A stretch of DNA of 64,000 nucleotides from Patescibacteria group bacterium (lineage in GTDB: Bacteria; Patescibacteriota; Microgenomatia; UBA1400; PJMF01): contig JBDTME010000001.1 of NCBI GenBank assembly GCA_039934415.1, forward strand, positions 338,785-402,784, written 5' to 3'. Shown here piece after piece: positions 1 through 32,843 of the stretch; within the stretch, counting starts at the first letter, position 1; every line of letters begins with the position of its first letter. A model generated the notes under the pieces. That model had not been told where the DNA came from and made no database searches. It saw only the letters and a program-made list of their open reading frames with translations. The translations under genes were made by a program, and so were the position numbers.

Positions 1-906
1 CCTAAGCAACTCCCACCAACTGTAGGATTCAAGCAACTTCCTAAACTTCCTTTTCCAGTTCAACCTAACGTCCCAAAATCATACACACTGGAAACAGTAG
101 GTGGCCAACTGCCCTCATTTGGTGACAGAGCTAAAGTATTCTTTATGCCTACCGCTCAAGCCAGTTTAACTGCAGTGGACCGAGCAAAAAAGAAAGCATC
201 GGGTTTGGGATACCTTTTTGAGCCAGAGATTATCGACTCGAGAATGTACAGGTGGACACTCACTTCTCCATTACTCGCTACTTTGCAAATGGATATCCTG
301 ACAGGAACTTTCACAATCTCGACGAACTGGTCTGCTCACCCTGAGTTGCTAACTAAAAAGCAAACCATAAGTTCTACAACACTCATTGAGAGGGTCAAGT
401 CGACTCTCCAGCAAGCAAATAGTTTGTCGGCCGACGTATCCACAGGTCCAGCTCGGACAAAACTCGTCAAAACGATCGGTGGACAACTGACTGAGGCAGA
501 CTCACTTTCCGACGCAGATTTCTTGGAAGTGGATTTGTATCGTAAACCAGTTGATGAAAAATATAGCTCTGTCACCGCCAGAGGCAAACAAGGTCCAGTT
601 CATGCTTTGGTCGCATCTGATGGTACTATCTTGGAGATGATTCAAAATGTTTATCCAGTTGAGTATCAAATAGTAGAGACCTATCCATTGCTATCACCAG
701 ATCTCGCTTGGAAAACACTGTCAGCTGGAGCAGGCTACGTCGCTCAAAAAGGAACGAGCGATACTGCAACTATCCGCACGATGTCGCTGGCATACTTTGA
801 ACCAGATGAAGAAACTCCCTACTATCGCCCCGTCTATGTCTTTGAAAGCAAGGAAGGCTTTGTCGGGATGGTTGATGCGATTGATCCAATCTGGATACAA
901 AAATAA
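1..906 (+). CDS. hypothetical protein, 5'-truncated by the window edge
   Basis: Frame 1 is stop-free from nt 1 into the ORF-track ORF 145..906, so the gene starts upstream of the window. No recognisable catalytic motif. Confidence 0.5.
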   Translation, partial: PKQLPPTVGFKQLPKLPFPVQPNVPKSYTLETVGGQLPSFGDRAKVFFMPTAQASLTAVDRAKKKASGLGYLFEPEIIDSRMYRWTLTSPLLATLQMDILTGTFTISTNWSAHPELLTKKQTISSTTLIERVKSTLQQANSLSADVSTGPARTKLVKTIGGQLTEADSLSDADFLEVDLYRKPVDEKYSSVTARGKQGPVHALVASDGTILEMIQNVYPVEYQIVETYPLLSPDLAWKTLSAGAGYVAQKGTSDTATIRTMSLAYFEPDEETPYYRPVYVFESKEGFVGMVDAIDPIWIQK

Positions 907-922
907 ATGCTATAATTCCCCC

Positions 923-2353
923 ATGACTGTTCGCACGCGCATGGCTCCTAGCCCTACTGGTGACATCCACGTCGGGAGTATGTCCATCGTTCTCAAAAAC
1001 TACGCTTTTGCCAAAAAAAATCAAGGTAAGTTTGTGTTGAGAATCGAAGATACAGATCAGGAAAGAGAAGTCGAAGGAGCTACAAAAAGAATTCAGTCAA
1101 TCATTCGTGACTACGGACTGGACTGGGACGAGGGTCCTGATAAAGGCGGCCCATATGCACCATACATTCAATCAGAACGTTTATCGATTTATAAAGAACA
1201 CGCCGATCAACTGATAAGCACAGGAAAAGCGTACTACTGTTTTTGTTCTAAAGAGCGACTTGCAGAAGTTCATGCCCAACAACTAGCCGCCAAGACACCT
1301 CCTATGTATGATCGTCATTGTCGATCACTTTCATCAACTGAAGTAGCAGAAAAACTTAATTCTAAATTACCATATGTCATTCGATTAAGAGTTCCTGACA
1401 ACCAAACTATAACTTTTACTGATCTGATTCGTGGGAAAATCGAAGTTCAATCTGCAATTATTGATGATCAGGTCTTGTTAAAATCTGATGGTTTTCCCAC
1501 TTATCATCTGGCTGTCGTCGTAGATGACTATTTAATGAAGATTACTCACATCATGCGTGGTGAAGAGTGGATTAGTTCGACTCCTAAACATGTCTTGCTC
1601 TACCAAGCTTATGGTTGGGAACAACCAATCTACGCGCACATTCCGATCTTTCTTAATCCAGATGGCAAAGGGAAAATGAGCAAACGTAAAGGAACTGTTT
1701 CGGCTCAATCGTTCTTGGATGCTGGCTACCTCCCTGAAGCAATGCTTAACTTTTTCATGATCCTTGGCTGGGGACCAAAGGACCAACGAGAAATTCTCAC
1801 GCTCGACGAGTACATTCAAGAATTTGATCCCAAAGATATTAGTGCCAAATCAGTCGTCTTTGATTTAAAAAAACTGGATTGGATAAATGGGATGTATATC
1901 CGAAAATTGAGTCTCGATGAGTTAAAGAAACGACTCCAACCTTTTATTCCGACTAACTTTCCTACGGATAAAATTGATCACATACTACCTTTAGTTTCTG
2001 AAAGATTAGTAAAATTATCGGAGTTTGACTCCCTCACTGACTTTTTCTACAAAGAAATCCAAACAGATCACGACTTACTCGTCAAAAAATCAACTTCAGA
2101 GGAAGTAAGTTCGCAATTGAATCAGACAATTCAAGTAGTCGAATCACTTGATAAATGGTCACCACAAAAACTTGAAGAGGATATTCGCCAACTCCAAGAA
2201 AAACAGGAATGGAAAAAATCCCAATATTTCATGATGCTGCGTCTGGCAATTACCGGCAAACAAGCAACACCACCACTTTTTGAAACTATGATCGTGATTG
2301 GTAAAGAAGTCTGTCTCAAAAGACTCACAGCTAGCATACCGCATAATGTCTAA
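923..2353 (+). CDS. gltX: glutamyl-tRNA synthetase (class I aaRS)
   Basis: N-terminal 'MAPSPTGDIHVGS' HIGH-type region, 'LRIEDTDQERE', and 'KMSKRKG' (KMSKS motif). Start moved from the ORF-track start 797 to ATG 923 (MTVRTRMAPSPTG), which removes the overlap with the upstream ORF. Confidence 0.9.
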   Translation: MTVRTRMAPSPTGDIHVGSMSIVLKNYAFAKKNQGKFVLRIEDTDQEREVEGATKRIQSIIRDYGLDWDEGPDKGGPYAPYIQSERLSIYKEHADQLISTGKAYYCFCSKERLAEVHAQQLAAKTPPMYDRHCRSLSSTEVAEKLNSKLPYVIRLRVPDNQTITFTDLIRGKIEVQSAIIDDQVLLKSDGFPTYHLAVVVDDYLMKITHIMRGEEWISSTPKHVLLYQAYGWEQPIYAHIPIFLNPDGKGKMSKRKGTVSAQSFLDAGYLPEAMLNFFMILGWGPKDQREILTLDEYIQEFDPKDISAKSVVFDLKKLDWINGMYIRKLSLDELKKRLQPFIPTNFPTDKIDHILPLVSERLVKLSEFDSLTDFFYKEIQTDHDLLVKKSTSEEVSSQLNQTIQVVESLDKWSPQKLEEDIRQLQEKQEWKKSQYFMMLRLAITGKQATPPLFETMIVIGKEVCLKRLTASIPHNV

Positions 2354-2377
2354 AAAATTAAAAATTTCACGTCCCAC

Positions 2378-4030
2378 TTGTTCTCCCTGCCTGAGTTCTT
2401 TATGATCAGTGTAATGCGTAAAATCTACAGTTTTTTGCTCCATCATGAGGTCATCATCCTCTTACTCGCTTTTCTGATTTTGTTGCGAATTCCTAATCTC
2501 TTCGAGCCTTACTGGTATGGTGATGAAGGGATTTACCTCACAGTCGGAGCAGCAATGCGACAAGGATTACACTTGTATGCACAAACACTTGACCACAAGA
2601 CACCACTGATTTACTACCTTGCAATGGTACCTTCTCAGTTCTGGTTTCGGATGTTATTAATGGCCTGGATGTTAGTGACGACAACTTTTTTCTATTTACT
2701 CACAAAGAACCTCAAATTTCGCAAAGCTCAACAATATATCTCGACTTTTTTCTTCATCATCTTCACAACTTTGCCATGGTTGGAAGGAAATATTCCCAAT
2801 GGGGAACTATTTGTAATGGGGTTTATCATGGTTGGTGCGTGGGTCTTTTCACGAACTCAGTTTTTCCAGCTTAACCTTAAAGAAGAAATTGTCCCTATTA
2901 AGTCTGTCATCAGCTCTCAACAAGCAGTCGCCATCGCGATCAGCGGCTTCTTTTTCTCACTAGCAATCTTGACCAAAGTGCCAGCACTTTTTGATGTCGT
3001 TCCTTTTTACATGGTGGGCTATTTCACGCTTGTTGATCACTTTTCAATTAAGCGCTCTCGAAAAGTTTTTTTCTCAATTCTCGGGCTGTGGGAAATGCTG
3101 AGTATCTCCATAGTGACACCACTCGTGCTAAGTTTGGCTTACTATACCCTCAGAGGAACACTGCACGACTACATCGATATCGGCATTTTATACAACTTTA
3201 GATATGCAGGCACTTGGGCGTTACCAGCCTTACCTTTTGGGTTGGGAATTCTACTCACAATGAAAGGTAAGTTAGCAATTGTCGCTCTAATCGTATTCCT
3301 GTTATCAGTTTTGAGTAAAAAAGTTTCATCCAAATCTCAGTTCATTATCTCTTGGGCAATCATGTCATTGTTTGGAGCTTTGTTATCCTCCAGACCGTAC
3401 CCTCACTACTTACTCCAAGTCGTTCCGGCTTTTGCGCTACTGTTCGGTGCTCTCCTTCAAAAAATTAAGTCCAACACAGAGAGAGTCTTATTAATCATTC
3501 CTTTTGTATTACTCATTTTAGCAATAGTCACAATTCAGTTCGGGTTCTACAGCACAAGTAAATACTATTTAAACTTTATGCGTTACCTCACAGGTCGCAT
3601 CGATCGACAAGAATATAACCAGCGATTTGATTCTTTGATGAGCGATAACTATCAGGCTGCCGCGACCCTCAAAATGGATGATCAACCTCGAATTTTCATT
3701 TGGGGTACAAACCCCACTTTGTATGCATTATCAAAGAAAATTCCTGTTGGTCGCTTCATTACAGCGTTCCATATTGCTGATTTTCCGGGTGCTTTTGATG
3801 AGACGTATCGAGATTTAACCCAATATCATCCTGAATTTATCGTAGTCATGAAATCTGAAACGATTAAGTTTCCAGAATTCTTCACCTATCTGCACCTCAA
3901 CTATTTACCGTATAAAGATCTTGATCACATGACTATTTATAAAAGTACTGATCTTTTGGAAAAAGATGTCAACTTTTTTTCAGACAATCCCAGTTCACCT
4001 TCTGCAGAATTGAATGCAACAGCTGAATAG
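2378..4030 (+). CDS. polytopic membrane glycosyltransferase, GT-C fold (ArnT/PMT/GT39-GT83-like)
   Basis: 550 aa with about 12 hydrophobic helices. The N-terminal loop 'PNLFEPYWYGDEGIY' resembles the first periplasmic loop of GT-C polyprenyl-phosphate-sugar-dependent transferases. Start codon uncertain. Confidence 0.55.
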   Translation: MFSLPEFFMISVMRKIYSFLLHHEVIILLLAFLILLRIPNLFEPYWYGDEGIYLTVGAAMRQGLHLYAQTLDHKTPLIYYLAMVPSQFWFRMLLMAWMLVTTTFFYLLTKNLKFRKAQQYISTFFFIIFTTLPWLEGNIPNGELFVMGFIMVGAWVFSRTQFFQLNLKEEIVPIKSVISSQQAVAIAISGFFFSLAILTKVPALFDVVPFYMVGYFTLVDHFSIKRSRKVFFSILGLWEMLSISIVTPLVLSLAYYTLRGTLHDYIDIGILYNFRYAGTWALPALPFGLGILLTMKGKLAIVALIVFLLSVLSKKVSSKSQFIISWAIMSLFGALLSSRPYPHYLLQVVPAFALLFGALLQKIKSNTERVLLIIPFVLLILAIVTIQFGFYSTSKYYLNFMRYLTGRIDRQEYNQRFDSLMSDNYQAAATLKMDDQPRIFIWGTNPTLYALSKKIPVGRFITAFHIADFPGAFDETYRDLTQYHPEFIVVMKSETIKFPEFFTYLHLNYLPYKDLDHMTIYKSTDLLEKDVNFFSDNPSSPSAELNATAE

Positions 4031-4044
4031 CATATAATTTCCCC

Positions 4045-4413
4045 ATGTCTGTCTCTTTTACTTTCCGTCATCGACGCTCTTTGTTGGCTTTACCCCAAGA
4101 AATGAAACTGCCAACTTTGTTTTCGTTACTGATGGCGTCGATTAGTGCCTTTTTATCGATCATAGTGTATCCTTCGCTGCAACCAATCATTCCACTTTTC
4201 TACACGCTCCCGCAGCTTGACCAACAACTCGCTCGAAAAGAGTTTATGTTTGTTTTGCCCATCATCTCTATTAGCGTTTGTATTGTGAATCTAGTTTTTG
4301 GCAAAATCTTGTCCAAAATTGATTTTTTGATGATGCAGTTGTTGGCATGGCTTACAGTGTTTCTCGAATTCTTACTATTATTCGCATTAGTACGTATCAT
4401 TCTCATCATTTAA
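4045..4413 (+). CDS. small polytopic membrane protein, unknown function
   Basis: 122 aa with three hydrophobic segments. Sits between the GT-C and MraY/WecA-like genes, 4 nt before the next gene. Confidence 0.4.
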   Translation: MSVSFTFRHRRSLLALPQEMKLPTLFSLLMASISAFLSIIVYPSLQPIIPLFYTLPQLDQQLARKEFMFVLPIISISVCIVNLVFGKILSKIDFLMMQLLAWLTVFLEFLLLFALVRIILII

Positions 4414-4416
4414 TCT

Positions 4417-5499
4417 ATGATCATTCCTGCCTTCTTGGTCTCACTCTTCATTGCAGCGATTGTAGCCCCTCTCATTATTCGACTCTATACGTCTAGAAAG
4501 TGGATTGACGATCCCGCTAAGCAACACCACGTTAAAATAACTCATCAATCACCTGTTCCCCGTGGAGGTGGTCTCGTCATTTTAGTGGCAGTTCTCCTCA
4601 GCTGTTTGCTTTTTTTAAATCTGAATTCGGAAATATTCTGGATTTTATTAGGTACAACAATTTTAGCGGCGATGGGGACGCTAGACGACATTAAAAATTT
4701 AAATCCCTATCTTCGGTTTGTAGTTGGACTACTGGTTGCAGGTTTTATTGTGTTTGCTGGTATAAAGATTGAGTACATCACTCACCCATTTCAGACTGGC
4801 GTCATCTACATTGATCATCCTTCGTTTATCATCAATGGGGTACTTTTCTCGTTTAATTTGCCATTCTTGTCTACAATCCTAACTGTGCTCTGGATTGTCT
4901 GGAATATGAACATAGTGAATTGGTCTAAAGGCATCGATGGTCAACTGCCAGGCGTAGTTGGCATTGCGTCTATCTTTATCGGCATCCTAGCAATTCGTTT
5001 TTCAGCAGACCCAGCTCAACAAAATGTAATTCTTCTCGCATTTATCGTAGCTGGCGCTTATCTAGGACTTTTGATCTGGAACGCCTACCCGCAAAAAATC
5101 ATGCCAGGGTACGGGGCAGGTTCGCTAGGTGGATATTTCCTTGCTATCTTAGCTATCCTGTCAGGTGCTAAGTTAGCCACGTCGTTATTAGTACTTGCTT
5201 TACCAACAGCTGATGCCATATTCACCATCACAAGGCGACTACTTCGCAAGAAATCGCCGTTTTGGGGAGATCGCGGACATCTCCACCATAAATTGATGGA
5301 TGTGTTAGGATGGTCTAAGAGAACAACAGCTTTCTTTTATTGGATGGTGACAGCGCTGATGGGCTTTATAGCGCTCCAATTGAAGCCAGAACAAAAATTG
5401 TTTACAATTGTTGTAGTAAGCGCACTAGTATTTGGATTTTTGATATGGGCAAAACTTTTTATTACCTCCTCAAAACAGCACGACCAAGACAGTGGATAA
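4417..5499 (+). CDS. polyprenyl-phosphate phospho-sugar transferase, MraY/WecA (GT4) family
   Basis: 360 aa, about 10 TM helices. Family motifs 'PRGGGL', 'GTLDDIKN', 'NMNIVNWSKGIDGQLPG' (N.N..DG.DG) and 'GDRGHLHHKL'. Cannot tell MraY from a WecA-like initiating transferase; the Asp of the 'GD.GS' motif appears replaced ('GYGAGS'). Confidence 0.7.
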   Translation: MIIPAFLVSLFIAAIVAPLIIRLYTSRKWIDDPAKQHHVKITHQSPVPRGGGLVILVAVLLSCLLFLNLNSEIFWILLGTTILAAMGTLDDIKNLNPYLRFVVGLLVAGFIVFAGIKIEYITHPFQTGVIYIDHPSFIINGVLFSFNLPFLSTILTVLWIVWNMNIVNWSKGIDGQLPGVVGIASIFIGILAIRFSADPAQQNVILLAFIVAGAYLGLLIWNAYPQKIMPGYGAGSLGGYFLAILAILSGAKLATSLLVLALPTADAIFTITRRLLRKKSPFWGDRGHLHHKLMDVLGWSKRTTAFFYWMVTALMGFIALQLKPEQKLFTIVVVSALVFGFLIWAKLFITSSKQHDQDSG

Positions 5500-6383
5500 A
5501 AAATTTGGCATTATTTGCCACGCTTGTTTTCTCTGGGCTGTTCTTCAAACCTTTTCCGGGTAATCTTTTAACGGTTTCTCAGGCTTTTATCATATTTTGC
5601 GTCCTGTGTTCATCTATTTACATCATAAATGACATTGTTGATGTTGAGTCAGATAAAAAACATCCCTTTAAAAAGAAGCGACCAATTGCGTCAGGAGACT
5701 TACCAATCCCCACTGCCGTCTTTTACGCGATTGCCGGAATGGTATTAGTCATCTTCTTTTCACTTTCACTTAATCCTTTTTTCTTCTATCTCGTCTTAAC
5801 TTATATTGCTCTCCAGATCTTATACACAGTCAAGTTGAAACACATTCCAATTTTAGATGTGCTCACTATTGCAGCAGGATTCATCATTCGCGTCTACGCT
5901 GGTGCCGTTGTAGTGAATCTGCATATGAATGTTTGGTTTTTGTTAACAGTTTTGTCAGCTTCTTTGTTCTTGGCTATCGGCAAACGCCAAAGTGAGCGAA
6001 CATTACTTGAAGGAAGACTTGGTGAAACGAGGAAAACGCTCCAACATTACTCGAAACGGTTACTTGATATTTATACTGGCATGTTTGCCAATACCACTTG
6101 GCTAACATATGCTCTTTATGCGTATCAACGCGAAGAAATTTCTCCAACCGAATCAATCTTTCGCAAGTTGACTTTCTTACCTCGCACATTCACCTCAGAA
6201 AAATGGTTAATGATTACCATTCCAGTTGTCATCTATATTGTGATGAGATATCTACAGTTGGTATATGAAAATAACCAAGGTGAGTCGCCGGAGAGAGTGC
6301 TTCTCAACGATAAACCACTATTGGTTGGTGTGATTACTTGGGGATTACTAGTGATGATTATTATCTATGTCGTAGGTAGTTGA
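5445..6383 (+). CDS. decaprenyl-phosphate phosphoribosyltransferase-like prenyltransferase (UbiA superfamily, DPPR-synthase type)
   Basis: Signatures 'ARPRQWIKNL' and 'NDIVDVESDKKHPFKKKRPIASG', matching Rv3806c-type enzymes. Start set at ATG 5445 (MGKTFYY); the ORF track starts at 5340. Overlaps the upstream gene by 55 nt. Confidence 0.7.
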   Translation: MGKTFYYLLKTARPRQWIKNLALFATLVFSGLFFKPFPGNLLTVSQAFIIFCVLCSSIYIINDIVDVESDKKHPFKKKRPIASGDLPIPTAVFYAIAGMVLVIFFSLSLNPFFFYLVLTYIALQILYTVKLKHIPILDVLTIAAGFIIRVYAGAVVVNLHMNVWFLLTVLSASLFLAIGKRQSERTLLEGRLGETRKTLQHYSKRLLDIYTGMFANTTWLTYALYAYQREEISPTESIFRKLTFLPRTFTSEKWLMITIPVVIYIVMRYLQLVYENNQGESPERVLLNDKPLLVGVITWGLLVMIIIYVVGS

Positions 6384-6384
6384 G

Positions 6385-7320
6385 CTATTTCTCAGTCACA
6401 TACTTACCGCTTACCCACCCTCTTTTTCCGGTTTCGTACTCAATCTGATCCCAACCGTCTTGCTTGTCCAAAAGAGGAAAGGTTTCGCCAACATCCACTT
6501 TTGCCAATTCTTTGCCAGTAGCCGAGGCAGTTTCTCTCACTCGCAACCAACCTGTACCTGTTTCAATCACAGTGACTTGTTTTGTTGATGTAGAACTTGT
6601 TTGGGAAGTACGACTTGTCGACTCAGTTTTGGGGGTCGGAGTAGGTTTGGATGAAGAACTGGCCTCTTTGGCAGAACTCGAGGCCTCAGCAGCACCAGAA
6701 GCAACTTCGACGTCATCTGAAGTAACACTTACTTTTTGCTTTGCTAATTTCACTGTCACATCCATCTGAAAACCTTCCGCGATATTGATACTGTCCTCCT
6801 GGTCCTTGTAACTTGGCAGTGCTACTTGAAATCGATGGGTACCTGGTGTCATAGATTTCATCAAAACGGGGGTAAATCCTTGAGACACGTCGTCAACTTT
6901 AACTATTGCGCCGTCAGGGATACTCGCTAAAGAGAAATTAGCATCTTTTTTCTTTTTGAGTGGCTCGAGCTCATAGACTATTCCCCCACTCGTCTCAGCC
7001 GTTTTCCCGAATGTCCAGTTCATGACAGCCAAAGTGGTGGAATAAAGTGTTACTGAGGTCTCATAAGTTGCTAATTCCTGATCTTGAGGTTCTAGTCGTA
7101 CCGAGTAGCTGCCTGGTTTTAGGGTTTGATCACTGTATGGAGTCATTCCGACCTTGTTTCCATTCAAGAAAACAGCAGCGGTAATACCATCTGTGGTAAT
7201 TTGAAGCCCTGATACTTCTTGCTTTTGAAAAGGCAAAGTACAGCCTGCCAAAAAAACCACTGAGGAGATGAGCAAGCACAACGCTAAAGAAAAGGAAGTA
7301 GATCTGGGCAAACGCAGCAT
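6385..7320 (-). CDS. lipoprotein with two PEGA-like domains, S/T-rich linker and C-terminal bacterial SH3 (SH3b) domain
   Basis: Start moved to the internal ATG at 7320 (MLRLPRS...LISSVVFLAGC: signal peptide plus lipobox LAGC). PEGA-like segments 'FLNGNKVGMTPY..LKPGSYSV' and 'IVKVDDVSQGFTPV..MTPGTHRF'. C-terminal 'GWLRVRETASATGKELAKVDVGETFPLLDKQDGWDQIEYETGKRGWVSGKYV' is SH3b-like. Confidence 0.55.
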   Translation of the reverse strand: MLRLPRSTSFSLALCLLISSVVFLAGCTLPFQKQEVSGLQITTDGITAAVFLNGNKVGMTPYSDQTLKPGSYSVRLEPQDQELATYETSVTLYSTTLAVMNWTFGKTAETSGGIVYELEPLKKKKDANFSLASIPDGAIVKVDDVSQGFTPVLMKSMTPGTHRFQVALPSYKDQEDSINIAEGFQMDVTVKLAKQKVSVTSDDVEVASGAAEASSSAKEASSSSKPTPTPKTESTSRTSQTSSTSTKQVTVIETGTGWLRVRETASATGKELAKVDVGETFPLLDKQDGWDQIEYETGKRGWVSGKYVTEK

Positions 7321-7428
7321 AGGGGTATTGTATACCCAGATACATAACCATTGCAAACTAGATGTAACCGCTACTATAAAGATATGGCGGCTCACGGACT
7401 CCCATTTTATGCTGTATAATGCGAGTCT

Positions 7429-9195: not shown

Positions 9196-10290
9196 ATGAA
9201 AAAAAAAGTTTTGATTATATTTGGTGGAAAATCGGGAGAGCATGAAGTATCCAATCGATCAGCAAAATCAATTGAACAATACCTTGATAGAGACAAATTT
9301 GAACCATATGTGTTGGGAATCACTTCAGATGGACGTTGGCATTTTGGATCAAGTGTCGAAAGTATCACTAGTAATTTACAAGTATTACCTCCTTCTGAAC
9401 ATGTTTCGCTGCCGACTGAACCAGGCAACAGAGAGTTGACTGTTCAAACAGAAAAAGGATTAGAACATCTTCAATTTGATGTTATCTTTCCAATTATTCA
9501 CGGAACAAATGGAGAGGACGGGAAGCTACAAGGACTATTGGAAATTTCCAATTTACCATATGTAGGAGCAGGAGTAATTGGATCTGCACTAGCAATGGAT
9601 AAAGTAATCCAGAAACAACTTTGTGATGGGCGAGGATTTCCTCAAACTCAGTATGAATGGTTCTGGAAACATGAATGGGAGAAAAGTGAAGATCACATAA
9701 TTGATAAAATAGAAAAAAAATTTGCATATCCAATATTTGTTAAGCCTGCAAATTCAGGTTCAAGTGTCGGCATTACCAAAGCTCATAATAAACAGGAGTT
9801 TATACACGCTGTCAAACTAGCTTTGGAATACGATTTGAAAATCTTGGTCGAAGAGGCAATTCAAGATATTGCAGAAGTTGAAGTGGGTGTACTCGGAAAC
9901 CATAAACCTAAGGCTTCAGTTTGCGGTAGCATCAAACCTAAAGCCGAGTTTTACGATTACCAAACAAAATATGTTACTGATGATATTATCGCAGAGATAC
10001 CTGCTGAAATACCTGCTGATATTTCTGAAAAAATTCGAGCTACAGCAGTAGAGGTATTTCAACTTCTCAATTGTAAAGGTATGGCTCGAGTTGACTTCTT
10101 TTATCAACCTAAAACTGGTAAATATTTTTTAAATGAAATAAACACTTTACCTGGATTCACTTCGACCAGCATGTACCCTAAATTATGGGAAGCAACTGGT
10201 CTTTCCTATACAGATTTGCTATCAGAGCTTATTGTGCTGGCAATTGAAGATTGGAAAGAAAAGCAGACGGTCAACAATAACTTAGAATAA
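9196..10290 (+). CDS. ddl: D-alanine--D-alanine ligase
   Basis: N-terminal 'KVLIIFGGKSGEHEVS'; ATP-grasp C-terminus 'MARVDFFYQPKTGKYFLNEINTLPGFTSTSMYPKLW'. Confidence 0.9.
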   Translation: MKKKVLIIFGGKSGEHEVSNRSAKSIEQYLDRDKFEPYVLGITSDGRWHFGSSVESITSNLQVLPPSEHVSLPTEPGNRELTVQTEKGLEHLQFDVIFPIIHGTNGEDGKLQGLLEISNLPYVGAGVIGSALAMDKVIQKQLCDGRGFPQTQYEWFWKHEWEKSEDHIIDKIEKKFAYPIFVKPANSGSSVGITKAHNKQEFIHAVKLALEYDLKILVEEAIQDIAEVEVGVLGNHKPKASVCGSIKPKAEFYDYQTKYVTDDIIAEIPAEIPADISEKIRATAVEVFQLLNCKGMARVDFFYQPKTGKYFLNEINTLPGFTSTSMYPKLWEATGLSYTDLLSELIVLAIEDWKEKQTVNNNLE

Positions 10291-10292
10291 CT

Positions 10293-11606
10293 ATGAAATC
10301 TTTTTTCTCTAAACTCATAGTAAACTGGTTACGGTTTACTGCACAACTCCAGTTAATGAAAGTGCAGCCATTAGTTATTGGAGTAACAGGAAGCGCAGGG
10401 AAGACTTCTTGTGTACAAGCAATTGGAGTTGTTCTTTCCCAAAAAACGAAGTTGAAAGTGGGCAGAAAAGGCAATAGTGAAACTGGTATCCCAATGGAAA
10501 TTCTGGGAATAAAAGTTGGAACGTATAGTGGATACGATTGGGTGAATGTTTGTCTGCAAGCACTCTGGCAATTGTGTACAAATTGGGAACGGTACGACAC
10601 ATTGGTATTAGAGATGGGAATTGATAGCGACCAATTACCTAAAAACATGTCCCACCAACTTTCAATCGTACAACCACAGATTGGTGTCTTGCTCTCTATC
10701 AGTGGAGTACACGGTCAAAATTTTTCTGGAAAAGATATTCTACAAAGTATTGCCAACGAAAAAGGAAAATTATTAAAATCACTTGATGCAAGTGGTGTAG
10801 CAATTTACTCACTCGATTATTCACAAATTCTCAAGTTAGTTCCACATATCATTGCCAAAAAACTTACTTTTTCATCAAACAAATCATCTGCTGATTTGCA
10901 ATTAATCAAACATGAATTGAGTCTATCTGGGACCACATTCACTTTTCTTCATGAACAAACTACACATTCGCTTCACTTTTCAAAACAACTCCACTTCAAA
11001 GAGTCTTTTGGCACTTTTGCCAGCGCGATTTTAGTCGGACTCGAATTTGGCATCACAGTTGAGGAATCTTGTCACAAGCTTTCTCAAAATTTCCAACTGC
11101 AACCCGGCAGAATGAGTGTGATTGAAGGTAGAAACAACTCTATTATTATCGACTCATCGTACAACTCTTCTTTAGAACCCACCTCTGCTGCCTTAAGAAT
11201 GCTTGATTTGTTGCCTGGGAGAAAAATAGCAGTTCTTGGCGACATGAGAGAACTTGGTGCCTTGGCTCAACATGATCATCAAGAATTGGCCAAACAAGCA
11301 GCTAAATCCGCTAACATCATTGTTTTGATTGGACCTTTGACTTCTCAATACACTTTGTCTCAATTACAACAACTTAATTTTTCAGATAAAAACCTTATGA
11401 GTTTCGCAAATGCATATCAAGCAATCGATACTTTACAAGAAATGATACGACCAAATGATATTATTTTAGTGAAAGGCTCACAAAACACCATTTTCTTAGA
11501 AATCATCGTCAAGGCACTCATGAAACATCCCGACCAATCCTCAGCACTTCTTTGTCGCCAAACTCCCTTCTGGGAAAGACAAAGACTGCAATTAAAACGA
11601 TCTTGA
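10293..11606 (+). CDS. murF: UDP-N-acetylmuramoyl-tripeptide--D-alanyl-D-alanine ligase (Mur ligase family)
   Basis: Mur-ligase P-loop 'VIGVTGSAGKTS'; 'SYNSS..EPTSAALRML' C-terminal domain. Lies immediately downstream of ddl (classic ddl-murF pair). Confidence 0.7.
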   Translation: MKSFFSKLIVNWLRFTAQLQLMKVQPLVIGVTGSAGKTSCVQAIGVVLSQKTKLKVGRKGNSETGIPMEILGIKVGTYSGYDWVNVCLQALWQLCTNWERYDTLVLEMGIDSDQLPKNMSHQLSIVQPQIGVLLSISGVHGQNFSGKDILQSIANEKGKLLKSLDASGVAIYSLDYSQILKLVPHIIAKKLTFSSNKSSADLQLIKHELSLSGTTFTFLHEQTTHSLHFSKQLHFKESFGTFASAILVGLEFGITVEESCHKLSQNFQLQPGRMSVIEGRNNSIIIDSSYNSSLEPTSAALRMLDLLPGRKIAVLGDMRELGALAQHDHQELAKQAAKSANIIVLIGPLTSQYTLSQLQQLNFSDKNLMSFANAYQAIDTLQEMIRPNDIILVKGSQNTIFLEIIVKALMKHPDQSSALLCRQTPFWERQRLQLKRS

Positions 11607-26763: not shown

Positions 26764-28224
26764 ATGTCGTCAAAAGAAAACCCCAGAATCCGGTTAGAAC
26801 GCAATGAAGATGGAAAGTTGCAGGTCGTTGGGAAGCGATTAGAGAATACCAAAGCATTTGCTGCAGCTTTTTTGCCATTTATAGAAGAAATTGGTAACAT
26901 CCTGACGAACGAATACCCAGATGATAATCGCGTAGCAATGAAGCTGCTACAAATCATGCAGTTAGATGGAGATTATACCATCGGTGAAGCTGCAGCTGCA
27001 GCATTGAGTGATCCTGACGCTAAAAGAGCTGAGATGCCTCGAGCTATGCAGGAAACATTAGGTAAAGGTATTCTGTGGTACGAATCTTTCGGTCCAGAAA
27101 ACGATCTTAGGCTTTTAGTACGTAAACTTTTACTTCTAAAGCAGGGTGGCGGAGCAGCTCGTAAGAATGTTGAACAACTGGTTGGCAATGCCAAAAAAAT
27201 TATCGATGAAATGAAAGAATCTGGGACACATGCAGACGTTGATATTGTGTGGACAAACGCACGGCTTGCAAATCTTAATCTCCTTTTCGCTGATGGGCAG
27301 TTTACACCAGAGGAAATGCGCCAACTTTTTGATCGTGCAGAATGGGGATTTGATCACCTGCTTCAAACACAACTCTGGCACAGCGTCCTTTCTAAAGTTC
27401 CCGGCATGGGTGCTCGGATTCGTTTTCCAGGCAAGAAAAAGATGCAACATATTGTGAAAGGAACACTTAAAAAAATGACAAGTTCCTATGACATTGCCAA
27501 AGTACGTGAACTGATGCAAGACAATGATCCCCGTCAAACTGACATTCCGTTCTTACTACTACTTGCAGAAGGTTTGCGAGGAAAATTATCTGAGCACGCA
27601 AAAAAAAACTTACCGTTACATCATCGTGACGTCATTGAACACACAACCGGAAATATTCTTCAAACGCTCTTTGCAGCGACAGAGACTTCATTTGCTGAAA
27701 TTAAACGCATGATGATCAAACTGCAGGATCCAAAATTATTTGCACAACTAAAAGCGGAAGCTCTAGCTGCGTTACCCAACGGATTAGCCTCAATTACTCC
27801 AGAGACACTCATGAGAGGCGATCTTTTTCCCAAATTAGTTGCTGAAATTCATGACAGTTTTCGTAATCCGCCAACTCCACTTGATCAACGAGTGAATGTT
27901 GATCCGGAGACCGGCGAGGAGTCTACAACATATATTGGGTTACAAGCCATGACTGAGAATGCCTATCGTCAACAGGTGTACACAACATTCTCCCAACTTG
28001 TTAGAGGTGAGTGGTTTGCTAATGTCAATAAACTTTCAACACCAGACAAAAAATACAGTAATCCTCGAGATTGTCCAGGAGCAACTTGGGCAATTACTGA
28101 GATCATGTGCACTATACTAGCTATTTTGTTAGAGACAAATGGAGTGAGATTGGCCAACAAGCCAGTGGAATTTAAAGGCGTTACTAGCACTCCTCGCAAT
28201 GTGAATGTCCAATTTATTTCCTAA
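26764..28224 (+). CDS. hypothetical protein, 486 aa, no recognisable domain
   Basis: Long, soluble, helix-rich ORF. Visibly higher GC than neighbouring genes. No signal peptide and no catalytic motif I can name. Confidence 0.45.
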   Translation: MSSKENPRIRLERNEDGKLQVVGKRLENTKAFAAAFLPFIEEIGNILTNEYPDDNRVAMKLLQIMQLDGDYTIGEAAAAALSDPDAKRAEMPRAMQETLGKGILWYESFGPENDLRLLVRKLLLLKQGGGAARKNVEQLVGNAKKIIDEMKESGTHADVDIVWTNARLANLNLLFADGQFTPEEMRQLFDRAEWGFDHLLQTQLWHSVLSKVPGMGARIRFPGKKKMQHIVKGTLKKMTSSYDIAKVRELMQDNDPRQTDIPFLLLLAEGLRGKLSEHAKKNLPLHHRDVIEHTTGNILQTLFAATETSFAEIKRMMIKLQDPKLFAQLKAEALAALPNGLASITPETLMRGDLFPKLVAEIHDSFRNPPTPLDQRVNVDPETGEESTTYIGLQAMTENAYRQQVYTTFSQLVRGEWFANVNKLSTPDKKYSNPRDCPGATWAITEIMCTILAILLETNGVRLANKPVEFKGVTSTPRNVNVQFIS

Positions 28225-29456: not shown

Positions 29457-30014
29457 ATGAAAGAAAATCCATTTCTAAAAGGGTCTGTAGCCAAGGATCA
29501 AGATGGTGTTGAGGTCAACGCAGAGCTAGAAGCTGTTGTAAAAAGAATTGCATCTTTACTTCCTCACGATGTTCTCTTTGAACTGTTTTCAAGTAGCCCA
29601 AATGAAACAGGTGGTAGATCAGAATTCCCATATTGTCGTGTCGACTCGCAATTGATTGTTAGTAGAAATTGGGTTTATATATTTGAACAGTACGGAGCAA
29701 AAGATCAAGAAGATTTTAAGAGAATCTATGAAGCAGCTGCAACCTCAGCTTTCAAGGCGATTGTATGGGTAGAAGTTGGATTCCAAAATCTAGATAACTT
29801 AGCAGTAAGTCCTGCTTCTAGAAATTGGACAAGCGGAGTAGGACATTTTGTGAATGACCAACAAAGAGCGGAAGGAATAAGAACCGCAGGTAGAGGAATG
29901 TATAAACAAATGTTGAACAGGTTTGTCCAATTTAGAGACGCTAACCAAGTTGATAGTGATATTTTTAATAGGTACAACGTCGAAGGTTTGCTAGATAAAT
30001 TCAGGTCTGGCTAA
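29457..30014 (+). CDS. hypothetical protein
   Basis: 185 aa, soluble, no motif recognised. The only plus-strand ORF inside the island. Preceded by repeat copy R1 and followed by R2. Confidence 0.4.
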   Translation: MKENPFLKGSVAKDQDGVEVNAELEAVVKRIASLLPHDVLFELFSSSPNETGGRSEFPYCRVDSQLIVSRNWVYIFEQYGAKDQEDFKRIYEAAATSAFKAIVWVEVGFQNLDNLAVSPASRNWTSGVGHFVNDQQRAEGIRTAGRGMYKQMLNRFVQFRDANQVDSDIFNRYNVEGLLDKFRSG

Positions 30015-32133: not shown

Positions 32134-32277
32134 TTGGGAGCTGATAACCGTACTTGGCTCGAACCTACGAGACTTGATTACTCCAGGTTTAATTCTACAA
32201 CTTAACGCTCTAAAGAGCCATATAAGTATCGAGAGTTTTGCAGATATGAGCTGGGTTGATGATAGAAGTGCCGCTTA
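32134..32277 (+). repeat. island repeat copy R4 (same frame open through to TAG 32275-32277)
   Basis: Starts 2-6 nt from the kinase gene start codon at 32132. Overlaps the 3' end of the minus gene 32202..32843. Confidence 0.75.
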
Positions 32278-32843
32278 GAAGTTTTTTCTGTAGAAGAGAA
32301 GTTTATGAAAGAGCTAAGTAAAAGTAGGGCTCCAAGGGTTAACATAATAAGAGCTCCTAAAAAGTATTTATCTAGACCAAAGGCTTTAGGGGAATTAATA
32401 CTGAAATTTAATACTTTCTTGTCATCTTCATTTAACCTTTTGAATAATTCTTTCTTTGTAATCTGTAAAGTTAGAAACTCTTTGTATAAAGACAACCTAG
32501 GACTAAGTAGAGAATGCCACTTTTCGCCCATTTCTTGATAAGAATTTCCCTTGGACTTATTATAAAAAAATAAAATGGACATACCAAAAACGATCAAAGT
32601 TAAAAGCATTAATTCACCAAGAAAGAATAGAGGGCGATTTACAACATTTCCTAAAGCAGAAAATCCAAACCCAGCAATAACGCCCACGCTAGTCAAAAAA
32701 GTATAGAACAGCCCTACAGATTGTTCGTCTAGCTTACTCAATTTTTCTTCATAGGAACCCATCAGATCTATATATGTCTTATGAAACTGATTAGACTCAG
32801 CTTGAATCTCTTTAAATTCTTTTTCTGTGAAGTCCAAAGTCAT
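32202..32843 (-). CDS. membrane protein, unknown function
   Basis: 213 aa, three hydrophobic helices. Last about 13 codons overlap repeat copy R4. Confidence 0.4.
   Translation of the reverse strand: MTLDFTEKEFKEIQAESNQFHKTYIDLMGSYEEKLSKLDEQSVGLFYTFLTSVGVIAGFGFSALGNVVNRPLFFLGELMLLTLIVFGMSILFFYNKSKGNSYQEMGEKWHSLLSPRLSLYKEFLTLQITKKELFKRLNEDDKKVLNFSINSPKAFGLDKYFLGALIMLTLGALLLLSSFINFSSTEKTSKRHFYHQPSSYLQNSRYLYGSLER

Follow-up and report, generated by a model that had tools for sequence, protein, structure and literature searches.

A conserved four-gene module of Patescibacteria pairs a predicted polyprenyl-phosphate 5-phosphoribosyltransferase with a GT-C glycosyltransferase of an apparently undescribed family

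The logic of a PPPRS supplying a GT-C glycosyltransferase has been demonstrated experimentally in Citrobacter and mycobacteria (PMC11127046). In Citrobacter youngae O1/O2, the components are ORF15 (PPPRS-PRP), ORF14 (a MATE flippase), and ORF12, a GT-C which founded family GT136 (Kelly et al, 2024, PMC11127046). The mycobacterial decaprenyl-P-arabinose pathway, encoded in a cluster of ∼30 kb, employs Rv3806c, the phosphatase Rv3807c, DprE1/DprE2, Rv3789, the AftA/Emb GT-Cs, a WecA primer, and GlfT GT2s. In the related hexose systems (GtrA/GtrB/Gtr*, CsbB/GtcA/YfhO, and GacI/GacJ/GacK/GacL), a sugar linked to lipid monophosphate is synthesized inside the cell and, once flipped, serves a GT-C on the outside, and small membrane partners (GacJ, GtrA/GtcA) go with the enzymes. 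The module described here, from a 64-kb stretch of patescibacterial DNA (the window), would follow the same inside-to-outside route, and its small membrane protein parallels those partners; its donor synthase, however, is a UbiA-fold, PRPP-dependent enzyme rather than a UDP-sugar GT2. As in C. youngae, the gene for the UbiA-fold phosphoribosyltransferase adjoins that for the GT-C, but the module has a PNPT gene within it, and the host is a member of the Patescibacteria, presumably without LPS, which rules out an O antigen as the acceptor. With mycobacteria, it would share the logic of PNPT primer, GT2, lipid-linked pentofuranose donor, and GT-C, albeit in four or five genes.

Four consecutive membrane-protein genes on the plus strand, with gaps of 14, 3, and −55 nt, had been proposed in a preliminary description of this DNA; all four reading frames were found where they had been placed, and the spacing was borne out when start and stop codons were checked. 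The GT-C gene (ORF1) occupies 2414..4030 and encodes 538 aa from ATG 2414. The longest reading frame opens at TTG 2378 (550 aa), but the ATG is the more likely start because the NCBI protein (P0001) has 538 aa, spanning 98% of the longer frame. It is followed by a gene for a small membrane protein (ORF2; 4045..4413; 122 aa), for which ATG 4102 is a possible alternative start and may be the true one; two homologues begin at the equivalent position. The PNPT gene (ORF3; 4417..5499; 360 aa; Pfam Glycos_transf_4) and the phosphoribosyltransferase gene (ORF4; 5445..6383; 312 aa; UbiA fold) overlap out of frame by 55 nt (5445..5499; plus strand). That the overlap is real follows from the codon for the essential Arg13 of ORF4 (5481-5483), which lies within it, 5′ of the ORF3 stop codon (5497-5499). 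ORF4 starts at 5445 at the latest. The RPxQW motif is encoded 19 nt 5′ of this stop codon, a geometry repeated in 6 of 67 related loci. The overlap would imply translational coupling of ORF3 and ORF4 and, together with the tight spacing, suggests joint expression of all four genes.

ORF1-type GT-Cs are encoded in at least 435 species genomes. Gene order was compared across 68 related loci in which 2.5 kb or more of sequence follows the GT-C gene (the informative set). The PNPT (GT4) and UbiA genes were both present in 66 of them, and all three partners (ORF2, GT4, and UbiA) in 65, with order and strand kept throughout; PPPRS and GT-C are hence encoded together in the window and in 66/68 informative loci. 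This synteny has been retained although the module proteins have diverged to ∼40-60% identity (GT-C only ∼40-49%), and the shared gene order is far beyond chance. The flanks vary: gltX lies upstream in the window and its closest relatives, and a GT2 gene in most others. In most relatives, this PgaC-like GT2 gene (GT2L) is a fifth conserved gene immediately upstream; it was not found in the window. GT2L is absent, with GT-C and UbiA kept, from the window's lineage and from loci L001-L003, L071, and L078. Conversely, L045 and L066 retain GT2L and GT-C with no GT4 and UbiA genes nearby, so the GT-C is not strictly tied to a UbiA gene in cis. The order fixed across 66/68 loci against varying flanks, together with the overlap with the UbiA gene, argues that the genes are one functional unit, most likely a conserved operon of Microgenomates-type Patescibacteria.

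The identification of ORF4 as a DPPR synthase, put forward in the preliminary description on the strength of sequence motifs, proved sound. ARPRQWIKN, NDIVDVESD (5628-5654), and HPFKKKRPIASG are all present, as is a further motif, GKRQSE. Among NCBIfam models, ORF4 scored 232.7 bits with NF008978, above the cut-off of 207, and under the respective cut-offs with NF008977 (221.6 bits; cut-off 234) and NF008976 (164.5 bits; cut-off 474). It reached 154 bits with NF006088, a 482-aa model named "UbiA family prenyltransferase," whereas no other prenyltransferase model, be it for quinone, heme o, or chlorophyll, gave more than 55 bits. The gene therefore belongs to the DPPR-synthase clade and not to the quinone clade (233, 222, and 165 bits versus ≤55). 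Matches to PF01040 (E = 3e-23) and to the structure of M. tuberculosis Rv3806c (PDB 8j8j; E = 1e-38) mark it as a clear Rv3806c homologue, and its NCBI name is "decaprenyl-phosphate phosphoribosyltransferase." In Rv3806c, PRPP is contacted at its 5-phosphate by K28, Y70, and Y157, at the ribose by N73 and Q135, and at the pyrophosphate by R22, K87, R90, K143, and Y138, whereas N73 and D77 contact Mg and K28 and K191 the lipid phosphate. Eleven of these 12 residues are identical in ORF4, and 10 of the 11 do not vary among the 68 family members, the exception being Gln135, replaced by His in two of the 68. The remaining contact, Tyr157, is Phe in ORF4, a replacement also found in some mycobacteria (Rv3806c paper). 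Judged by its sequence, ORF4 is a predicted polyprenyl-phosphate 5-phosphoribosyltransferase (DPPR/PPPR synthase).

Assignment of ORF1 to the GT-C enzymes likewise stood, by virtue of its fold: ∼11 transmembrane helices followed by a C-terminal α/β domain predicted to lie outside the cell, with a multi-transmembrane core resembling that of solved GT-C enzymes. By its own score, ORF1 belongs neither to PF13231, one of the profiles named for a check in the preliminary description, nor to PF02366. No match to it was found in Pfam or NCBIfam, nor did its family profile retrieve anything from PDB sequences; PF02366 was matched by only 10 of 41 homologues, and hhalign connected the family to a neighboring PMT family with 67% probability. 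ORF1 thus belongs to a family related to, yet separate from, the PMT/PMT_2/ArnT-type GT-Cs (PF02366, PF13231; GT39/GT83). The acidic residues of a GT-C are in place: the invariant motif PYWYGDEGIY (2507-2536) holds Asp37-Glu38, invariant in 41 sequences and situated directly past the first transmembrane helix (residues 12-30), in the first extracytoplasmic loop. Further invariant motifs of the outer face are DHKTP, EGNIPNGELF, TKVP, and RPYPHY. With sidedness deduced from DSSP helix order and the positive-inside rule, the Asp-Glu pair, DHKTP, and the invariant E124/N129/E131, K188, and R327/H331 all fall into predicted outside loops. Helix number, C-terminal outer domain, and the acidic residue after the first helix are features shared with the C. 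youngae GT-C; the window's GT-C has no sequence family detectable in Pfam or NCBIfam. In the structural ranking, AftA and AftB came below ALG3, PIG-M, AglB, Pmt4, and ArnT, and no specific similarity to known pentofuranosyl GT-Cs emerged. ORF1 is a GT-C of an apparently undescribed family.

ORF3 had been placed in the MraY/WecA family, which its match to PF00953 confirms (77.9 bits; cut-off 27; E = 1e-21). It resembles WecA/TagO-type PNPTs in this domain, in its ∼10-11 transmembrane helices, and in the DD, NxxNxxxGxDG, and R/HxHH loop motifs, but it scored far under the cut-off of the WecA model (TIGR02380; 74.2 bits; cut-off 326). MraY models were also missed (TIGR00445, 55.2 bits, cut-off 192; archaeal MraY, 60 bits, far under its cut-off), and WecA was the best NCBIfam model for 38/38 family members. 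Also unlike the typical enzymes, the Mg-binding Asp of F(M/V)GD is replaced by Tyr232 ("PGYGAGS"; 5110-5112), invariant in 38 members, and the first Asp of DGxDG by an invariant Lys171. In alignments with MraY and human DPAGT1 structures, Tyr232 stands opposite the GD Asp (Asp252 of DPAGT1). The role of Asp252 has been described, and DPAGT1 carrying D252N is still active (PMC6218659), so Tyr at this position may leave the reaction of ORF3 as it is. ORF3 is accordingly an atypical, WecA-leaning member of the polyprenyl-phosphate N-acetylhexosamine-1-phosphate transferase family. ORF2, found between the GT-C and GT4 genes in 65/68 informative loci, has three hydrophobic segments and a conserved motif, LQPxIPLFY(S/T)L, as seen from conservation and hydropathy. 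Neither a Pfam family nor a PDB relative exists for it, and signals of GtrA, SMR, MATE, and DUF2304 were sought and not found; an AF2 model built on five sequences (pLDDT 60.5) was too poor to use. ORF2 is an orphan family that may act as a flippase or may assist the GT-C or one of the synthases as an accessory subunit, and it is the sole candidate within the module for a flipping or accessory role. At ∼120 aa, it is comparable with mycobacterial Rv3789, but it is not GtrA-like and, unlike its counterparts in the hexose systems, resembles neither the GtrA nor the DUF2304 family.

The wider neighborhood encodes GalU, PMT-type GT-Cs, Dpm1-like GT2s, an S11 peptidase, a Mur ligase, and Ddl. In the closest relative, further GT-C genes of the PMT_2 and DUF2298 types are located no more than 10 kb away, and a PMT-type GT-C gene follows UbiA in 22/60 loci. 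Some expected partners were not detected. Neither the module, nor the reading frames of the window, nor the recurrent gene clusters in the ∼8-kb flanks of 80 loci included a DPPR phosphatase of the PAP2 or HAD type, and ORF4 has no fused phosphatase domain (Pfam, NCBIfam), which sets it apart from the HAD-fused synthase of C. youngae and from the mycobacterial set with its PAP2 phosphatase. A recognized flippase (MATE, GtrA, or SMR) was absent from module, window, and ∼8-kb flanks; the orphan ORF2 occupies the place of the C. youngae MATE protein. DprE1/DprE2-like epimerases were missing from the window and from within ∼8 kb in relatives, as in the Ribf-adding O1 version of C. youngae but in contrast to mycobacteria; a route to arabinose is thus not evident, and ribose, or 5-phosphoribose, is the more likely donor sugar. 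In having no recognizable phosphatase, epimerase, or flippase, the module differs from known three-component pentofuranose/GT-C systems.

With slightly better than even confidence, we read the operon as encoding an extracytoplasmic pentofuranosylation system. On the cytoplasmic face, ORF4, by homology, would move 5-phosphoribose from PRPP onto polyprenyl phosphate, yielding polyprenyl-P-ribofuranose-5-P. The 5-phosphate would then be removed and the lipid-linked sugar carried to the outer face, where the GT-C would draw on a polyprenyl-P-pentose (ribofuranose being the most likely pentose) as donor and attach the sugar to a glycan of the surface or wall; for this step, fold and topology come from the analysis above, whereas donor and acceptor are what we infer. 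The atypical WecA-like PNPT probably supplies a polyprenyl-PP-HexNAc primer on which the acceptor is assembled; in most relatives, but not in the window, the PgaC-like GT2 synthase would probably extend it. A lipid-linked pentose donor feeding the GT-C, as the preliminary description had it, remains the best, if inferential, reading, strengthened by strong synteny and the published paradigm (PMC11127046); of the two sugars then considered, arabinose is less likely than ribose.

A different division of labor, which we consider unlikely, would make the GT-C an oligosaccharyl-/polysaccharide-transferase or a polymerase, acting on a PNPT-primed polyprenyl-PP-glycan or on the product of the relatives' GT2 synthase, with the UbiA product serving another GT-C, for example, a nearby PMT-type enzyme. 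The PNPT gene within the module would fit, as would the GT2L and GT-C pair kept without UbiA and GT4 in L045 and L066, and the PMT_2, DUF2298, and PMT-type genes nearby or downstream of UbiA. Yet the window's lineage and five related loci keep GT-C and UbiA and have no GT2L, and a PMT gene follows UbiA in about a third of loci only, compared with 66/68 for the pairing with an ORF1-type GT-C. Moreover, Pfam and hhalign matches point to PMT/ArnT-type enzymes, users of polyprenyl-monophosphate sugars, and not to OSTs; the DE motif in EL1 and the HKTP motif of ORF1 likewise resemble those enzymes.

If, instead, the donor kept its 5-phosphate, the GT-C would move 5-phosphoribofuranose, or the PNPT would act on the 5-phosphate, and a teichoic-acid-like ribose polymer containing phosphate, in place of simple ribofuranosyl side chains, might result. 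Such chemistry appears improbable: we know of no GT-C that takes a phosphorylated sugar donor, and a housekeeping phosphatase encoded elsewhere would suffice. In its favor, no phosphatase gene was found in the module, in the window, or around 80 loci, and the outer face of the GT-C is rich in invariant basic and His residues, in agreement with a phosphorylated donor. Two canonical acidic positions of the PNPT are replaced throughout the family, which suggests altered chemistry, but against this stands the activity of DPAGT1 D252N (PMC6218659). Very improbable, finally, is that ORF3 serves as MraY in this organism, or as some other peptidoglycan/lipid II enzyme, in a loose grouping of envelope genes rather than a single pathway. 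Its NCBI name ("MraY family glycosyltransferase"), MraY structures as its best PDB matches, and the lack of a second PNPT in the 64-kb window, despite Ddl and a Mur ligase there, speak for this notion; the low MraY score (55 bits versus 192), the higher WecA score in 38/38 members, and the fixed order and overlap across loci with varying flanks speak against it. So do the C-terminal SPFxGDRxHLHH of ORF3, which we take to be WecA/TagO-like, and the canonical MraY that Patescibacteria generally encode.

If the pentofuranosylation reading is true, minimal, uncultured Patescibacteria would make lipid-linked ribose inside the cell and decorate a surface sugar polymer with it outside, and the module would be a stripped-down cousin of the tuberculosis cell-wall pathway.

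The module, located in a window that derives from a Patescibacteria MAG, consists of four consecutive membrane-protein genes on the plus strand, encoding the GT-C protein (ORF1, 2378 or 2414 to 4030), a small membrane protein (ORF2, 4045–4413), a PNPT (ORF3, 4417–5499), and a UbiA-fold DPPR/PPPR synthase (DPPRS; ORF4, 5445–6383), all four products being predicted as membrane proteins from hydropathy. Inspection of the start and stop codons bore out the order and the spacings of 14, 3, and −55 nt given in the preliminary description, and the motifs it had quoted for ORF4 are present in the sequence. ORF1 is identical in sequence to an NCBI protein (locus tag ABI425_01645, on a 510-kb contig) for which ATG 2414 is given as the start (538 aa); ORF2 could alternatively start at ATG 4102. 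The 55-nt overlap between ORF3 and ORF4 is unavoidable because the codon for Arg13 of ORF4, an essential residue, lies upstream of the ORF3 stop codon, and the same geometry recurs in 6 of 67 related loci. Scanning for promoters and terminators was uninformative: promoter-like sites were fewer than in shuffled sequences, and the terminator-like sites were located inside genes.

The assignment of ORF4 is the firmest in the module. Its product matched Pfam UbiA (E 3e-23) and scored 232.7 bits against NCBIfam NF008978 (decaprenyl-phosphate phosphoribosyltransferase), which is above the cut-off of 207, and 222 and 165 bits against two sister DPPRS models. NF006088, a 482-aa model for UbiA family prenyltransferases whose long form we take to be the HAD-fused type, gave 154 bits, and none of the remaining UbiA-type prenyltransferase models, among them those for quinone, heme o, and chlorophyll synthesis, gave more than 55 bits. 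The closest solved structure was that of Rv3806c, the DPPRS of M. tuberculosis (8j8j; E 1e-38). Its contact residues, named from the PRPP- and decaprenyl-P-bound structures (PMC10994848), were transferred to ORF4 via the ORF4–8j8j alignment. Eleven of them are identical (R22, K28, Y70, N73, D77, K87, R90, Q135, Y138, K143, and K191; Rv3806c numbering), and ten of these are invariant across 68 family members, Q135 being replaced by His in two. The position of Y157 is occupied by Phe, an exchange also reported for some mycobacteria (PMC10994848). ORF4 had been proposed to be a DPPR synthase; clustering with quinone prenyltransferases, which would have spoken against this, therefore fails on both the NCBIfam scores and the conserved contact residues, and the same evidence rules out a heme prenyltransferase. 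Judged from its sequence, ORF4 is thus a polyprenyl-phosphate 5-phosphoribosyltransferase, a name that the NCBI annotation already carries.

ORF1 was less easily placed. The protein had no match in Pfam, NCBIfam, or among PDB sequences, and the profile of its family (41 sequences) matched nothing among PDB sequences either; membership in PF13231 or PF02366 was rejected on these grounds. Thus, of the profile assignments put forward in the preliminary description, those to UbiA/DPPRS (ORF4) and PF00953 (ORF3) held, and that of ORF1 to PF13231 did not. The connection to GT-C enzymes is made solely via the fold search and some of the homologs, of which 10 of 41 matched PF02366 (PMT; best E 4e-11). 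When the family was aligned (hhalign) to the true PMT family whose genes adjoin the module in relatives, the similarity covered residues 5–211 (E 5e-5). The AlphaFold model derived from the alignment of the family is confident (pLDDT 91.7; pTM 0.91). Judging by the order of its helices and the positive-inside rule, it comprises ∼11 transmembrane helices, an N-terminus that faces inward, and an outer C-terminal alpha/beta domain. Given this predicted topology, the invariant residues group in the outer loops: Asp37-Glu38 directly after the first transmembrane helix, D60-H61-K62, E124/N129/E131, K188, Y253/Y260/N261/Y264/W268, and R327/H331. This pattern in the model matches expectation for the active site of a GT-C that takes polyprenyl-phosphate sugars, and the presence of Asp37-Glu38 agrees with the view that ORF1 is a GT-C enzyme, for which the lack of acidic loop residues would have been a counterargument. 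With 599 clusters (50% identity; E ≤ 1e-30), or 2196 at E ≤ 1e-10, the proteins form a separate, apparently undescribed GT-C family.

ORF3 matched PF00953 with E 1e-21, in keeping with its proposed placement in the MraY/WecA family, and is an atypical member thereof. It scored 74 bits against the NCBIfam model for WecA (curated cut-off 326), 60 bits against that for archaeal MraY (450), and 55 bits against that for MraY (192); WecA was the top-scoring model in 38 of 38 members of the ORF3 family. The family retains the DD motif (D90, D91), D174, and the GDRGHLHH loop, R100 occupies the position of Lys125 in the human PNPT, DPAGT1, and N165 and N168 are the counterparts of DPAGT1 Asn182 and Asn185. 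Alignment with the MraY and DPAGT1 structures revealed two invariant exchanges, the remaining catalytic-site residues being retained: Tyr232 (5110–5112) replaces the Mg-binding Asp of F(M/V)GD (Asp252 of DPAGT1), and Lys171 (4927–4929) replaces the first Asp of DGxDG (DGLDG in MraY). Asp252 of DPAGT1 chelates the catalytic Mg2+; its exchange for Ala leaves 7% activity, and the D252N variant is fivefold more active (PMC6218659). By analogy, activity is plausible for the Tyr variant too, unusual as it is.

For ORF2, no such relationship emerged. It has three hydrophobic segments and a conserved motif, LQPxIPLFY(S/T)L, and none of 50 family members belongs to a Pfam family or has a relative in the PDB; GtrA, SMR, MATE, and DUF2304 proteins were considered and gave no signal in the same searches. 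A word-based homology search returned only five hits, and the AF2 model derived from these five sequences (pLDDT 60.5) was too poor for a fold search. ORF2 is a conserved orphan.

When one genome per species was scanned, relatives of ORF1 were found to be encoded in at least 435 species-level genomes, the best 80 of which belong to Patescibacteria (Pacebacteria, Woesebacteria, and Microgenomates). Several of the related loci (L004, L005, L014, L028, L052, and many “uncultured Pseudomonadales” entries) are titled Pseudomonadales, Vitreimonas, Limisphaerales, or TM6; they share the module and its neighbors with loci titled Patescibacteria, so these labels are probably wrong. Among the 68 loci whose downstream sequence is long enough, the PNPT and UbiA genes follow the GT-C gene in 66, and the small gene is present as well in 65, with order and strand kept. 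Identity to the proteins of the window is ∼40–49% for the GT-C protein, 45–62% for the PNPT, and 54–77% for the UbiA protein. The flanks of the module vary. In 65 of 70 other loci, the gene directly before that for the GT-C encodes a very conserved membrane GT2 protein of ∼500 aa (mean column identity 73%; for example, L025:5364–6866), which is missing from the window and from L001–L003, L071, and L078. It matched Glyco_trans_2_3 and PgaC/IcaA weakly, and SED and QxxRW-like motifs, recognized by eye, suggest a processive synthase. The first gene after the UbiA gene encodes a true PMT-type GT-C in 22 of 60 loci and GalU in 16; like the GT2 gene, neither is present in the window. Two loci, L045 and L066, retain the GT2 and GT-C genes without those for the small protein, the PNPT, and the UbiA protein. 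Both carry genes for paralogous Cys-rich secreted proteins after the GT-C gene (L045:9457–12268 and L066:9561–11827), and these proteins have in common a hydrophobic segment that is conserved at the C-terminus (…GIGILGGIFLLRVLAA…SQGDVKK…).

In the window, the UbiA gene converges with a minus-strand gene (6385–7395) for a protein with PEGA and bacterial SH3 domains and a Ser/Thr-rich linker, 1 nt separating the two stop codons. Because the same neighbor is found after the module in L040, L048, L061, and L085 as well, its product may act as a wall-associated partner in the sub-lineage of the window. Genes for Ddl and a MurF-like Mur ligase adjoin at 9196–11606, with no mraY after them. Upstream of the module, gltX is found only in the closest relatives of the window (L001–L003 and L085). 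The listed ORF (797–2353) begins well before the catalytic domain, which starts at residue 45, and so carries a long N-terminal extension. Its TTG at 797 also overlaps the preceding ORF (145–906); the true start is probably further downstream. Among the relatives with a long contig, L085 is the closest. Its gltX is preceded (1–6341) by genes for two PMT_2 GT-Cs, a Dpm1-like GT2, a DUF2298 protein of 727 aa, and an S11 peptidase, and this dense envelope-glycosylation neighborhood probably extends past the left edge of the window. Farther downstream in the window, three ORFs without a Pfam family (26764–28224, 486 aa; 29457–30014, 185 aa; and 32202–32843 on the minus strand, 213 aa) lie near genes for an M19 dipeptidase, an APH-family kinase, a cupin, a DUF4012 protein, and an LTD-domain surface protein. 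No Rfam family reached the gathering threshold across the 64 kb, despite a large block of ribosomal-protein, EF-Tu/EF-G, and rpoBC genes at 36.8–64 kb.

The nearest experimentally defined logic is that of the three-component pentofuranose system described by Kelly et al. (2024), in which und-P-Ribf is made from PRPP by a PPPRS of UbiA fold that carries a fused HAD phosphatase, a MATE protein serves as flippase, a GT-C (GT136) adds Ribf to a periplasmic polymer, and epimerases, where present, convert Ribf to Xylf or Araf (PMC11127046); the mycobacterial DPA pathway is an older analog. In the present module, synthase and GT-C are tightly linked, and no epimerase is encoded nearby. The DprE1/2-like epimerase or phosphatase genes that the preliminary description had suggested looking for did not turn up: DprE1/DprE2 (FAD oxidase and SDR epimerase), PAP2, and HAD phosphatase genes are neither among the ORFs of the window nor recurrent in the ∼8-kb flanks of 80 loci, and the same holds for MATE, GtrA, and SMR genes. 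The tight linkage and the lack of a nearby epimerase make polyprenyl-P-ribofuranose, by analogy, the most likely donor. After presumed dephosphorylation and flipping, the latter perhaps aided by ORF2, the GT-C would add ribofuranose from this donor to an extracytoplasmic acceptor. The presence of a PNPT in the module, and of the GT2 synthase and GalU in relatives, suggests a glycan with a polyprenyl-PP-HexNAc primer as the acceptor, and the genes for an S11 peptidase, a Mur ligase, Ddl, and the PEGA/SH3 protein in the vicinity speak for a wall-associated polymer as product. Whereas the analysis established the identity of ORF4, the fold and the outer-face conservation of ORF1, the family to which ORF3 belongs, and the synteny, the pairing of donor and acceptor, the dephosphorylation and flipping, the part played by ORF2, and the nature of the acceptor are inferred.

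Other arrangements have to be weighed. That the genes are merely co-located is unlikely because of their synteny and overlapping frames. The GT-C might instead use a polyprenyl-PP-glycan or work with the GT2 protein, in favor of which speak L045 and L066, where these two persist in the absence of UbiA and PNPT genes. The donor might also stay 5-phosphorylated. ORF3, in turn, might be the cell's own MraY, given that a second PNPT, that is, a canonical MraY, was not found in the 64-kb window or the flanks.

A ribofuranose donor is the preferred reading, and its general mechanism has precedent; two of the four genes already bear correct names at NCBI. The literature searched held no paper connecting DPPRS, GT-C, or WecA with Patescibacteria or the candidate phyla radiation (CPR), nor a description of the conserved module, its GT-C family, the orphan partner, or the Tyr-for-Asp PNPT. 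A bolder proposal, which we consider improbable, is that Microgenomates-type Patescibacteria use new parts to make an essential polymer of their wall or surface, along a minimal route resembling that to arabinogalactan. The new GT-C family would then use polyprenyl-P-ribofuranose or, because no phosphatase is evident, polyprenyl-P-5-phosphoribose directly, the orphan small membrane protein would stand in for known flippases or activators, and the Tyr-for-Asp PNPT would perform a modified priming chemistry. If true, this would be the first defined pathway for a CPR envelope glycopolymer.

The envelope chemistry of CPR bacteria is almost unknown because they are largely uncultured episymbionts. 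The module predicts a surface or wall glycan containing ribofuranose that is derived from PRPP via a lipid carrier. It gives functional context to two “hypothetical” families, the new GT-C family and the orphan small membrane protein, and brings an unusual PNPT variant to attention. While it would hold no surprise for a glycobiologist, it would extend the polyprenyl-P-pentofuranose/GT-C paradigm, demonstrated to date in Actinobacteria and Proteobacteria, to a deeply divergent, metabolically reduced lineage, and offers a concrete, testable handle on CPR envelope chemistry.
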